Assembly: GCA_964016885.1 (NCBI GenBank)
Contig: OZ024742.1
Coordinates: 139,810,001 to 139,874,000, forward strand
Source: Eledone cirrhosa
Taxonomy: Eukaryota
Direction: 5' to 3'
Length of the DNA: 64,000 nucleotides
The position numbers and the translations under genes were made by a program. Positions 21,636 through 48,745 of this stretch are shown here, piece by piece. The number at the start of each line of letters is the position of its first letter. The first letter of the stretch is position 1. The notes under the pieces were generated by a model. That model saw only the letters and a list, made by a program, of their open reading frames with translations. It was not told where the DNA came from and ran no database searches.

Positions 21636-21790
21636 GAACCGGTAGGACCCCGACGGCTGAGCTCAAGCCGTTTCGACGGTTAATTCTGGACGGGGTCCTA
21701 CCCGTTCATATCACCCACTCTACTACCCTAAGTATTGAGTACTTTGGTGCGTTATGGTCCATCTGGTTCCTTACCACATTTCCTTCGTTA
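21636..21790 (+). mobile_element. (AT)n-embedded hairpin element with hammerhead 3' half
   Basis: IR GAACC/GGTAGGACCCC versus GGGGTCCTACC/CGTTC; shares its body with 24620-24802. Confidence 0.8.
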
Positions 21791-21990
21791 TATATATATA
21801 TATATATATATATATATATATATATATATATATATATATATATATATATATATATATATATATATATATATATATATTATCCTCATTAGCATATTCATCC
21901 CAAGATTTGAAATTCTTTTCACTATTCAAACAGAACTTAAAACGATAAGTTCTTGTTTTGCATATGTCACTATCTGTAAAACAATTTTTA

Positions 21991-22053
21991 TATTTTATCT
22001 GATGAGAGCGTACCAAAAAATCTTGGTAACCTTGAAATATATATAATAAAATA
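21991..22053 (+). ncRNA. Type I hammerhead motif in a ~310-bp (AT)n-flanked insert (21875-22190)
   Basis: Stem I TATTTTAT/ATAAAATA, CTGATGA, stem II GAG/CTT plus TACCAA/TTGGTA, GAAA, palindromic stem III ATATATAT, AUA site. Confidence 0.85.
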
Positions 22054-22199
22054 AAATATGGTTTATAAAGACAGTTTCCATTTATTAATACTTTTGATAT
22101 TATACTCCAGAAGAAAATTGTAGAGTGCTTCTAAGCTGTTATAAACTAATTTTGTTGAATAACCAACAAATTAAATAACTCATTGTTTATATATATATA

Positions 22200-23449
22200 T
22201 CTTTATATATATAAAAGCGAGGATGTGTGTGTATCTGTGTACAATTTGGCATGCATAAGGCTTTCACAATTACCAACTGAATTTGACCAAATTTTCTGTG
22301 CACTTTGCACAGGTCGATAAGATTGTCACATCACAAACATTTTTCAAATCGACCCACGTTGAGCAATAAAAAATCGATATCAAAATTATCGGTAGAAAAA
22401 TTGATGTAAGGGAGATAACAAACTTTATTGACAATCCTTATAAGAAAGGGAGATAACATACTTTTCAATATAAACATCACATTCATTTGATTGACGAGAT
22501 TTTGATGGTGGTTTTATCTTTTGTTTCTTGGTTATTCTTTGTTGCACTTTCAAAGTTATTGAGAAATGCTTCAGCCACTGCTACGGCACGAGCTGTAGAG
22601 ACTGTAACAAGTCGAGCTATTCGGTTGGAGGGTAACGCTCAGCGTAGAGCTTTATGGCGGGGTATTTCAAAGGCATCACGCTCACGATGGCAGTTAATTA
22701 TAACAGTTAATTAAGGCACTTAATTATGACCCTAATGTAAACTATCAAATCCATCCTGATATTCAAATATATGCCATGTCAAATACTTGCCAACATTGTA
22801 AAGCTAAAAAGTGGGAGGGGGGGGGAGAATCAGCTGGAATATGCTGCTCCAACGGTAAGATTAATTTTCCCACACTTAGGGAACCACCGCAACCTCTCCA
22901 GATTGTTCTAACAGGTAAGCATTCACAATCACGTGATTTTTCTGAAGCATATCCAACAGTACAACATTGCGTTTCAAATGAACTTATTACAGCTCTGCCT
23001 TGACTTCGCCTTACTCATTACAAAACATACCAATGAATATGTTAGGCAGGATATTTTGGATTATAAGTTAAAAATGTAACCATACACAGCAAAGGATGCT
23101 CTCAAAGAATAGATTTTCTCTTATTCTACTCTCATTGTTTTTTTGTTTGTATACAACTCTGCTTTCATTACAACTTTTTGTACTTTAGTAAAACTGTCTG
23201 TTTTTTTACAGATTTGCAACGTGTATTGTCTTTAATCATTTGTATAACTACATCCTGTTCAGTGTTTTCCTTCATTATCAACATAGTGTTATGTGTACAA
23301 AGATTGCACTAAATATTCGTTTGCATTAATTATTGAAGACTTCTGCTTATTTTGACAGGTTGGGGACAAATAATGTTCTTCTTTTACTTCCTAGCTGTAT
23401 ATTCTTAGCATAATTTCAAACCCCGAGCAACGCCGGGTAAATCTGCTAA
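22200..23449 (+). mobile_element. Internally deleted Helitron
   Basis: 5' TC-TTTATATATATAAAA. Rep N-terminal fragment CQHCKAKKWEG..ESAGICCSNGKI.FP.L.EPP at 22776-23003. 3' hairpin CCCGAGCAACGCCGGG followed by CTAA; inserted between A and T. Confidence 0.85.
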
Positions 23450-23464
23450 TATATATATATATAT

Positions 23465-23920
23465 ATCGTTTTTGAATTTGTTTTGCAAGATTTCTTATCT
23501 GAAAACGTGTATTGAAATGAAACATATATTGTTATACTTTGGGAGGGTCATGTTGCAAATAAAAATACACGCATCTGTTAGTTTTCACTTTAACTCATCA
23601 TAAATTTCCGGTTGGTTGGTTTGATAATGGGATGGTTGTTTATATATTGTCAAAGCTCTTTCGTCACACATTCTGTAACCTCCACAGTGACTAGGTTTTT
23701 ATTTTGTCTCTCTACACCATCTTGTTTTTGTGTCTAATTACTGAGGAGGTTACAGAATGTGTGACGAATAAATTTTGACAATATATAAACAACCATCCGG
23801 TTATCCAACCAACCAACCAACGGGAAATTTATAATAAATTGAAGTGAAATGAAAACTAACAGGTGCGTGTATCTTTATTGGGAGCATGAAGCCCCCCTCC
23901 CTACCCAAAGTATAACACTA
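23465..23920. mobile_element. Inverted pair of PLE pseudo-LTR fragments (family of 46078-48200) with degenerate hammerheads
   Basis: IR at ~23525-23690 and 23742-23920. Contains CTGAGGAG-GTTAC/GTGAC-GAAT, similar to 47957-48200. Confidence 0.75.
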
Positions 23921-24169
23921 TATATATATACGTGTGTGTGTGTGTGTGTGTGTGTGTATTGAAACACACACATATATATATATATATGTATTTGTGTGAT
24001 TTGTGTGAGTATGTCTGTGTGTGTGTGTGTGTGTGTGTGTGTGTGTGTGTGTGTGTGTGTGTGTGTGTGTGTGTGGTGCGTGTGCGTATAACTATGATAA
24101 AGCATGCGATTTTGTGATAATGTTCTTCACATTTTTTTCCCTTCCGAAAAAAAACCCCAACAAAACGTT

Positions 24170-46233: not shown

Positions 46234-46278
46234 AGTCATAGTCCTTTCTTCACACACTCTGTGACCTCTTCAGTGACT
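46234..46278 (-). ncRNA. Minimal hammerhead motif (one stem II mutation)
   Basis: Mirror of 47957-48001 with GTGAA in place of GTGAC. Confidence 0.6.
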
Positions 46279-46489
46279 GGGGATTCCTTTCTTTGTTTCT
46301 GTGCCTCTCCTTTCTCTGTCCTACGCCATTTTGTTTCTGTGTGTGTGTTGTGTGCTCAGTTTGCGCATGCGCCACATCCGGGTGTCTGTGTGTGTTTATG
46401 TTCATTTATCTATTTGTTTATTTATTTATTTATTTACATGTTATTGGTTGGTTGTTTGTTCTATGTGTGTGTGTGTTTTCATTTTGTCC

Positions 46490-47420
46490 TTAATTGTAAG
46501 TTGTGATGTTGCTGTTCCACTCATATTTTCTATTTAATTTTGGTTGTAATTCTTTTATGTTTATTGCCTCTGTAATTTGTCTAAACATTGCATCTTTTCT
46601 GTGTGTAGATTCTATTTTTATTTCTATGTTCTCTAATTTACCCTTGTGTTCTATCTTAGCATGTTGGTAGAGTACAGATGATTCTTTATTATCTTGAAGG
46701 TCTCGCTCGTGTTCATTTATCCGTTCCCCTATACTACGAGCTGTCTCACCTATGTACACTATATTTTTGTTTCTACATTGTCCTTCAGTACATCTTATGC
46801 TATACACTACATTTCTAGTTTTACAGTTAATATGGGGGCTTATTTTACAGGTTATACATTTCTTATCTATACATGAGGTTCTTTGAAAAGAGTATGTCTT
46901 GCTAATAAGTGTTTTTACGGAGGTACCTGGTCTTTCTACTATCTTAATATTGAGTTTATGTTTATTTAGGGCCCTTCTAAATTTGTAGGCTAGTTCGCCT
47001 CTAGGGGTTGTATCGATGAACATTACACTCTGGTATTTATTGCTATCATACCATGAGTTTATTCTATTAGCCTTGTTCCTAGTTCTTTCTATTCTATTCC
47101 AAAATTTGCTCCTATACAAGGGGCAGGTCCCATTTATGTCATTATTTACCATTTTTTCCCATTTCGTTCTGGCTCCTCTATACACTCTGATTCTATCTCT
47201 CTGATTGTAGCCAGAGAACTGCATACGGTGGATGAAGTGTTGTATGTGTCTCTCTAGTTCTTCGGGGTTGCACATGCGGGACACATTTCTCATCACCCGT
47301 ACCAAATCCGCAATCAGTATGTTGATTTTGGTATGGTCCGAAATGGCCGAGTTTCGGTGGATCAGATGTTTGGAAGTCATGGGTTTGGCATAATGGGAAT
47401 GGAGGATTTGTTTTTGGTTG
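46490..47420 (-). pseudogene. PLE ORF C-terminal part (RT thumb, linker and GIY-YIG endonuclease), uninterrupted but 5' truncated
   Basis: HRNSAISDHTKINIL...MQFSGY; Cys cluster; VVYSIRC...YIGETARSIGERINEH...HAKIEH...RQITEAINI...LN. The first ~46 aa of the listed 356-aa ORF come from the antisense of the inverted arm. Confidence 0.9.
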
Positions 47421-47956
47421 TAGAAATGTAGTGTATAGCATAAGATGTACTGAAGGACAATGTAGAAACAAAAATATAGTGTACATAGGTGAGACAGCTC
47501 GTAGTATAGGGGAACGGATAAATGAACACTGGCGAGACCTTCAAGATAATAAAGAATCATCTGTACTCTACCAACATGCTAAGATAGAACACAAGGGTAA
47601 ATTAGAGAACATAGAAATAAAAATAGAATCTACACACAGAAAAATGCAATGTTTAGACAAATTACAGAGGCAATAAACATAAAAGAATTACAACCAAAAT
47701 TAAATAGAAAATGAGTGGAACAGCAACATCACAACTTACAATTAAGGACAAAATGAAAACACACACACACATAGAACAAACAACCAACCAATAACATGTA
47801 AATAAATAAATAAATAAACAAATAGATAAATGAACATAAACACACACAGACACCCGGATGTGGCGCATGCGCAAACTGAGCACACAACACACACACAGAA
47901 ACAAAATGGCGTAGGACAGAGAAAGGAGAGGCACAGAAACAAAGAAAGGAATCCCC

Positions 47957-48001
47957 AGTCACTGAAGAGGTCACAGAGTGTGTGACGAAAGGACTATGAC
48001 T
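47957..48001 (+). ncRNA. Minimal type I hammerhead motif in PLE pseudo-LTR
   Basis: AGTCA-CTGAAGA-G-GTCAC/GTGAC-GAAA-GGAC-TA-TGACT. Confidence 0.75.
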
Positions 48002-48660
48002 ATATATAAACAACTATCTGGTTGTGGAACCAACCAACCAGCCAGAAATTTATAAATTTATAAATATATAATAAATTGAAGTGAAAGCAACTGGTGCGTG
48101 TGTTTCTTATTGGCAACATGACCCTCCCAAAGTATAACAATATCGGTTTCAACACACGATTTCAGATAAAGAATCTTGCTAAACAAATTCAGAAACGAAA
48201 TATATATATATATATATATATTAGAAAATATATAGCTTTCACCGTATTTTTGACTAAAGGAATTTTTAGCTTGATAACGGGGTTTAGAACCCTCAGATAA
48301 ATGGAAAAAGATGAGTATTGACGTACATATTTTCTAATTTCAAACTCGCTCACTGTTTCAAAACATACTTACTTGATATATATATATATATATATATATA
48401 TATATATATATATATATATATATATATATATATATATATATATATATATATATATATATATATATATATATATATATATAAATGATATAGATATCCCAGT
48501 AGGTACTAGGTACCCCCGGAAATATATATGGTGTCTATAATAGTGGTTGTTCTATGGTACTAATTTGAGATACCAGAACTGTAAATATGAACGGAACAAG
48601 TAAACATTAAACAATCTTTCAAATAAATTAAAATACGATTTAAATATTTACCTCTTCTAG

Positions 48661-48745
48661 TGCCATATCTGAAGAGCTATATCTTTCCATTGGAAATTCT
48701 CTGAATTTCCAATCTTTTGATAAGCGAAACCGTCGGTCATGGCAC
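48661..48745 (+). ncRNA. Type I hammerhead motif (copy 1)
   Basis: CTGAAGA at 48669; stem II GCT.TATC/GATA.AGC plus ATTGGAAATTC/GAATTTCCAAT; GAAA; stem III ACCG-T-CGGT; GUC at 48736-48738. Confidence 0.8.

Follow-up and report, generated by a model that had tools for sequence, protein, structure and literature searches.

Inverted Penelope-like insertions in the Eledone cirrhosa genome include a minor class that ends on the first base past the predicted hammerhead cut

The window analysed here, a stretch of 64,000 nt of the Eledone cirrhosa genome (GCA_964016885.1, contig OZ024742.1, positions 139,810,001 to 139,874,000), is rich in (TA)n, long interspersed nuclear element (LINE) fragments and short inverted repeats, and harbours several hammerhead-bearing families whose copies are inserted head to head in the manner of Penelope-like elements (PLEs). 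The families are designated A (at 48666), B (21692 and 24620), C (36492), D1 (15226; relative D2) and E (50221; relative E2), and positions within them are given relative to the predicted cut, with +1 for the base directly 3′ of it. An original prediction, made from the sequence of the window, held that the breakpoints of these inverted duplications coincide with hammerhead cleavage sites, reverse transcription having run off the 5′ end of a self-cleaved RNA and then switched template. Comparison across the 3.0-Gb assembly holding the window (genome-wide in the following) indicates that arms ending at +1 form a sharp minor class, which likely constitutes a record of hammerhead cleavage in vivo.

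A type I hammerhead core (CUGANGA/GAAA/UH or its U3-A8 variant, with stems I–III) is present in families A, C, D1 and E. The fold of family C comprises all core elements, namely CUGAUGA, a palindromic stem III AUGAUCAU, a stem I AUAC/GUAU and the cut after A36504, while the D1 hammerhead is built on the core UUGAAAA and GUA at 15223–15225 (+1 = 15226). U3-A8 is a described variant of PLE hammerheads (PMC4209133). The CUGA half of the family B hammerhead lies outside the window and is found in long B copies (4,965 matches), which carry the core UUGANAA; as its position 7 varies freely (G, U or A), this core is likely real. Among 100 listed long B copies of the window's subfamily U3-A8 occurs in 29 and a C3.A8 mismatch in 71 (hand count), and among 100 listed copies of the sister subfamily B′ U3-A8 occurs in all and C3.A8 in none; most B′ copies have a weaker stem III. 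Stem III is palindromic and dimer-capable, with self-duplex energies from −8.6 to −30.9 kcal/mol across the families; it is most stable in B (−30.9 kcal/mol versus −9 to −14 kcal/mol elsewhere) and comprises 3 bp in family A. The Rfam hammerhead models recognised none of the cited sites and yielded one sub-threshold HH9 match at 42566–42641 of the window; PLE hammerhead variants have been defined by custom descriptors (PMC4209133). Other families contribute additional type I hammerheads, complete or probably so, at 21999–22045 (+), 49500–49452 (−), 17293–17239 (−), 25054–25098 (+) and 42566–42641 (−), and their AT-rich stem III renders the scoring of junctions against (TA)n ambiguous.

The junctions of the window are compiled in Table 1. 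In family A, the inverted arm pairs exactly up to 48739, directly 3′ of GUC 48736–48738 of a complete hammerhead, and T48666 is common to the inverted arm and the sense piece, the latter matching the second unit of the family. The claim that this arm ends on the first base after GUC is thus borne out, the one shared base leaving +1 or +2. The start of the family B sense arm at the cut (21692) was likewise correctly seen, again with an ambiguity of 1 nt (C21691 or G21692), and its partner arm ends at −40. Contigs of three runs aligned to 21636–21790 contained the family and many joint types, none of them spanning this junction, which bears neither way. For family C an arm start 2 nt past the cut had been claimed (36435/36492); the arm ends in fact at −13, because the GUC chosen at 36487–36489 is located inside stem II. 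About 6 of 100 family C ends fall just 3′ of that GUC (hand count), and we read them as microhomology since their frequency resembles that of other AT-starting positions. At the D1 junction (14957/15228) the cut site was placed correctly and the arm end was not: strict matching gives +9, a value of +3 needs two differences in six bases, and the arm is parted from the sense copy by ca. 200 nt of unrelated DNA. The three junctions already named as counter-examples (24620, 47421 and 50221) are all genuine. That at 50221 corresponds to the 5′ edge of stem I, ca. 45 nt ahead of the predicted cut after A50263, and that at 47421 is situated inside an open reading frame (ORF) fragment, far from any hammerhead. 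Four hand-picked sites, two of which fail, are by themselves no evidence.

Table 1. Arms, junctions and predicted ribozymes in the window (window coordinates; element positions relative to the predicted cut)
Feature	Position	Strand	Remarks
Family A inverted arm	48475..48666	−	element +192 (outer, at (TA)n) to +1/+2 (inner)
Family A sense piece	48666..49289	+	466-nt tandem unit plus +85 end; begins at stem I 5′ strand; non-coding, retrozyme-like
Family A hammerhead 1	48666..48743	+	CUGAAGA 48669–48675, GAAA 48726–48729, predicted cut 48738/48739
Family A hammerhead 2	49130..49209	+	core 49135–49141, predicted cut 49204/49205, stem I GCUAU/AUGGC
Family B short inverted arm	21636..21691	−	inner end at element −40, near the family's dominant 5′ end
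Family B long arm	21691..21790	+	from −1/+1 (C21691 shared) to +99 tail in (TA)n
Family B solo arm	21316..21379	−	ends at −45
Family B pair	24620..24803		arm to −40 (24620–24679), 9-nt insert, sense arm from −15 (24689); counter-example
Family C inverted arm	36357..36435	−	inner end at −13 relative to the corrected cut
Family C sense arm with hammerhead	36436..36565	+	core 36455–36461, GAAA 36493–36496, predicted cut 36504/36505
Family D1 inverted arm	14901..14952	−	inner end +9; permissive matching to 14957, +3
Spacer between D1 arms	14953..15157		ca. 200 nt, no match in other loci compared
Family D1 sense copy	15158..15345	+	from common 5′ end (−68); U3-A8 core 15196–15202, predicted cut 15225/15226
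Family E perfect palindrome	50153..50289		arms end at stem I 5′ edge (50219–50222); core 50225–50231, predicted cut 50263/50264; counter-example
Inverted arms 46076–46817 and 47421–48143	46076..48143		flank PLE-like ORF fragment (46490–47578, minus); counter-example

Family B is the most abundant of the hammerhead families, and its class with both arms at +1 amounts to a few hundred copies. Pairs of B arms were gathered genome-wide by exact-anchor patterns, and short junctions with a spacer of 0–22 nt account for 96 rows, 89 of them unique; all but one were fetched and scored by script. Locus L351 is counted twice among the 89 (one nested row), a possible T variant at −1 makes the ends of L138, L142 and L157 ambiguous, and several ends scored +3 or +4 represent +1 ends in which the C run has a single substitution, their score being left unchanged. 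An untemplated insert is present at 51 of the 89 junctions, which hence lack microhomology. Their 102 ends are distributed with 62 at +1, 11 at +2, 8 at +3 and 5 at −1, whereas a uniform null predicts 8% at +1 (p ~1e-41), and both arms end at +1 in 18 of the 51 (null 0.65%). Microhomology cannot explain this peak because the insert-bearing junctions have none. Nine further short junctions are blunt CCCC/GGGG, and +1 junctions mostly hold 0–8 untemplated bases. Independently ending arms predict 1–3 pairs with both ends at +1, versus 18–27 seen (single +1 arms being hand-estimated at 100–200). Moreover, +1 ends are also joined straight to (TA)n without a partner arm (L147, L251).

For subfamily B′, 200 rows were obtained, the first 100 of which (98 loci) were counted by hand; 54 of the 98 loci have both arms at +1, in 27 cases blunt and in 27 with an insert. 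Plotted genome-wide against the cut, as the original prediction had suggested, the breakpoints thus give a one-base peak at +1 in family B that usually involves both arms and is repeated in B′; neither a uniform distribution nor microhomology alone, the two outcomes named at the outset as speaking against the idea, applies to family B. Pairs with both ends at +1 represent ca. 0.5% of the ca. 5,510 family B pairs. Related to upstream-type pairs, they reach 0.65% in B (27/4123) versus 2.9% in B′ (about 108/3693), a ca. 4-fold difference.

The two arms of an insertion share subfamily letters (91 shared versus 15 in shuffles), which fits one RNA copied twice and equally one source locus or later conversion. 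Six B pairs were suspected of combining arms from two subfamilies, and the three whose junction regions were inspected (L562, L257, L222) have matching or near-matching arms, so that nothing points to two different RNAs; one further subfamily pattern gave 0 matches. A B pair with both ends at +1 (G000:C2:271251737-271251812) holds a 36-nt self-complementary foreign hairpin, possibly a second RNA acquired via a template jump. Family B also exhibits frequent same-strand deletions via the direct repeat AGCCGTCG (at −30 and −7) and via GTCC (at −40 and +4), which would be consistent with template jumps during reverse transcription.

Family A contributes 6 ends at +1 among the 15 between −30 and +9, and three of these six belong to 551-nt copies that begin at a cut site, span the following ribozyme and terminate at +85. 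Over all 29 filtered genome-wide matches, 5 ends are at +1 (hand count); a first family A sample was left out of the end counts because the query contained the ribozyme.

The usual arm end is a different one. The outer ends, located at (TA)n, are fixed and number two per family (+19/+99 for B, +85/+192 for A and +22/+89 for E); the dominant inner end is ragged and lies, over the families, 35–70 nt ahead of the cut. Grouped by spacer length, the family B pairs comprise 96 rows at 0–22 nt, 292 at 23–45 nt, 1,006 at 46–75 nt and 4,123 at 76–106 nt; the last group constitutes 75% of the ca. 5,510 pairs, and its arms end mostly at −33 to −45. Among 30 sampled pairs of this group most ends are ragged within that range, and 22 of the 30 junctions contain untemplated inserts of the same kind as the +1 junctions. 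Of 68 unselected B arms, a set that excludes L473 as a locus chosen on account of its junctions, 45 have their end between −35 and −45 and none has it at +1. The inner ends of E2 cluster at −39 to −47 and those of D near −63 to −73. Long E and D copies possess a TATA-like motif, which we take to be of promoter type, ca. 30 nt upstream of the dominant inner end, and this end is likely the transcription start, as judged from its position relative to the motif. Penelope has an internal promoter with a start in the region of the pseudo-long terminal repeat (pLTR) (PMC2377424, PMC6765202). We rejected the idea that the upstream hot spot marks the end of an intron, since bases 5′ of the AG are retained in the copies and, after splicing, the RNA would be expected to lead on into an exon. 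Four loci (L105, L127, L160, L561) have upstream-type junctions with runs of 10–20 T or A between the arms.

We consider it probable, at roughly 70%, that the head-to-head PLE insertions in (TA)n are two target-strand-primed cDNAs joined to each other, and that the rare class of +1 arms originates from hammerhead-cut RNA. Mechanistically, an element protein would nick both strands and start reverse transcription at two internal sites; each cDNA would run to the 5′ end of its RNA or stop short, and the cDNA ends would gain untemplated bases before being joined by a template jump or by end-joining. As a rule the RNA 5′ end would correspond to the pLTR transcription start, and in occasional cases to the ribozyme cut, and paired +1 ends might result from one cleaved RNA copied twice or from cutting of both partners of a ribozyme dimer. 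In vitro, the protein of an anole element nicks and extends both strands and uses two internal start sites; it was modelled as a dimer (PMC11167929). Two joined cDNAs would account for the two outer ends, the inserts and the junctions with 0–2 bases between the arms, the last of which could not arise from a self-primed loop. The original proposal, run-off from cleaved RNA and then a switch, fits the minor +1 class with its untemplated inserts; it does not account for how the inversions are built.

Several observations weigh against the part assigned here to cleavage or to the transcription start. The one biochemical study, on the anole element, reports no RNA-seq reads ending at the cut and describes cleavage as dispensable for insertion in vitro (PMC11167929). 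Among B ends joined to the target 3 are at −1 beside 5–6 at +1 (hand count), and where the partner arm is near full-length, +1 would fit only some 10 rows among the first 100 of 346 (hand count) and 2 of 30 such loci of the window's type scored by script. Family B, with the most stable stem III, could owe part of its peak to a stall before the helix. The contrast between B and B′ is only 1.8-fold per long copy (27/996 versus about 108/2250) and nil for all short pairs per long copy (96/996 versus 200/2250), so that it does not on its own show that the mismatch lowers activity; the two also differ in age. In family A the +1 position begins an AT that matches the (TA)n target, and the count is inflated accordingly. 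Only a weak peak is seen in E2 (19 junctions, with 3 of 8 clean ends at +1) and in D2 (6 of 32 ends, no pair with both ends at +1 in 34 junctions, one listed near-duplicate locus not fetched), and family C has none (a single end exactly at +1 among the first 100 of 322 rows, hand count), although the cores of C and E are the canonical CUGAUGA. Finally, it is motifs that place the transcription start, and a clear TATA box is missing from family B.

The strongest competitor, to which we give a clearly subordinate but real chance, is a stall of the reverse transcriptase just before the stem III helix, or the dimer duplex, of an uncleaved RNA, so that the cDNA would end near +1 without any cleavage. 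The peak is indeed strongest in family B with its most stable stem III, some ends are at −1, and the in vitro dispensability of cleavage mentioned above points the same way (PMC11167929). However, the helix begins at −2, yet 62 ends are found at +1 versus 5 at −1, no comparable peak occurs at the base of stem II, and family A peaks at +1 despite a stem III of 3 bp. A pure stall is further disfavoured because B′, with a mostly weaker stem III, has more pairs with both ends at +1, and an RNA that is usually read through would not couple both arms so tightly. Considerably less probable is a later origin of the short palindromes, by deletion of the centre of longer head-to-head pairs through cruciform or hairpin processing and end-joining, with the G4/C4 run as a preferred site. 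Perfect palindromes of great length are unstable, and the blunt CCCC/GGGG junctions are also readable as 2-nt microhomology; but among the 51 insert-bearing junctions the arms share an end only at +1 (the 18 cases given above), and +1 ends also abut (TA)n without a partner and occur on the unit-length 551-nt family A copies. Least likely of all is that run-off and switch create PLE inverted arms in general or that snap-back on stem I sets the +1 ends: a +1 class exists, and at 48666 the +1 end abuts the 5′ strand of stem I, but this junction is 2 nt off the stem I register, in 18 of 27 junctions with both ends at +1 the arms are separated by fewer than 3 bases, which does not suffice for a self-primed loop, the E and D pairs each have an upstream end point of their own, and the predominance of ends at −33 to −45 in 75% of B pairs refutes the model as a general rule. 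The lack of +1 ends among the 68 unselected arms, the missing or weak peak in C, D2 and E2 and the failure of two of the four original sites tell against it as well. In addition, passages on Naiad PLEs describe inverted arms in elements without canonical hammerheads (PMC8557442).

Beyond the reading as two joined cDNAs, it is conceivable, though we would rather bet against it, that the hammerheads cleave in vivo as dimers in the transposing particle, both partners being cut and each product templating one arm, including trans-cut short RNAs without the CUGA half. If so, the paired +1 junctions would be a countable fossil record of dimer cleavage, and the frequency of +1 pairs would read out the activity of natural core variants (U3-A8 above C3.A8). 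Irrespective of dimers, a one-base peak of both arms over hundreds of insertions would provide genomic evidence of in vivo cutting by Penelope hammerheads. The cleavage product would then serve as a template; cleavage would be occasional, and the inversion would likely stem from two-strand priming and the joining of cDNA ends. As such counts can be repeated in any genome and set against core variants, both ribozyme activity and the two-cDNA model become testable without new sequencing.

Concerning the identity of the elements, the tandem and inverted pLTR architecture with an optional tail is present in family B. A piece upstream of a B pLTR (L295:3-368) has a YIG motif and a match to PF01541 (GIY-YIG endonuclease) at E 0.027, too weak to reach the cut-off, and is linked to the B pLTR in at least 8 long copies. 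Hydra-clade CxxC/CxH motifs as defined in PMC8557442 are found in L295, L128 and L129 (CNLCSEE...LLNK...CKH), while a DKG-bearing ORF in L129 proved not to be linked to family B. Five B′ pLTRs in tandem with 3.54-kb spacing, plus one inverted, at G000:C1:91473158-91493817 are a candidate full-length array, the tandem spacing itself extending over C1:91473158-91487433. Family A consists of non-coding tandem units of 463–466 nt, with two ribozymes in several loci and no ORF of 150 amino acids there. Pfam searches with the ORF fragments of the window gave nothing above the cut-off. The window additionally contains a 61-bp tandem array of ca. 97% identity (56053–59955), nested tandem repeats with a period near 880–900 nt (546–4441), a match to the histone 3′ stem-loop at the Rfam gathering score (14651–14695, +) and a large nested inverted repeat that includes two family D1 copies (25178–27929).

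The arrangement described here corresponds basically to the insertion unit of endonuclease-containing (EN+) PLEs, composed of a pLTR, an adjoining inverted 5′-truncated copy and an optional tail (PMC8557442, PMC3846280). Head-to-head arms, two alternative outer ends, tandem units, (TA)n targets and a type I hammerhead with palindromic stem III in the pLTR are shared; the tails are 30–40 nt long there and 67–107 nt here, and the passages concerned, unlike the present data, draw no link between the inner junction and the ribozyme cut. In PMC3846280 the inverted copy is proposed to arise by self-priming on an antisense template; the blunt and 1-nt junctions found here instead favour two joined cDNA ends. 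The anole element Poseidon (PMC11167929) is alike in the nicking and extension of both strands, the two internal starts, the protein-assisted hammerhead and the modelled dimer, and differs in that the junctions studied here point to occasional in vivo cleavage with use of the product as template. The metazoan non-LTR (long terminal repeat) retrozymes (PMC7229834; bioRxiv 10.64898/2026.07.22.740005) resemble family A, whose non-coding tandem unit of 466 nt includes a single type I hammerhead; in contrast to them, family A has PLE-type two-ended inverted insertions, and some of its copies begin at a cut site and extend across the following ribozyme, which is uncut. We found no paper tying Penelope genomic junctions to the hammerhead cut in a literature search that covered listings and selected passages (Fig. 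S2 of PMC11167929 may bear on it). A precedent comes from R2 with its HDV-like (hepatitis delta virus-like) ribozyme, in which the RNA 5′ end is defined by the cut and genomic 5′ junctions preserve it, together with untemplated bases and end-joining (PMC3774820, PMC11331408), although there the cut is the normal 5′ end of a single-armed insertion and here it concerns a small minority and both arms. Overall, the +1 junctions form a genuine and sharp though rare trace of probable cleavage in vivo within an insertion structure that is already known.

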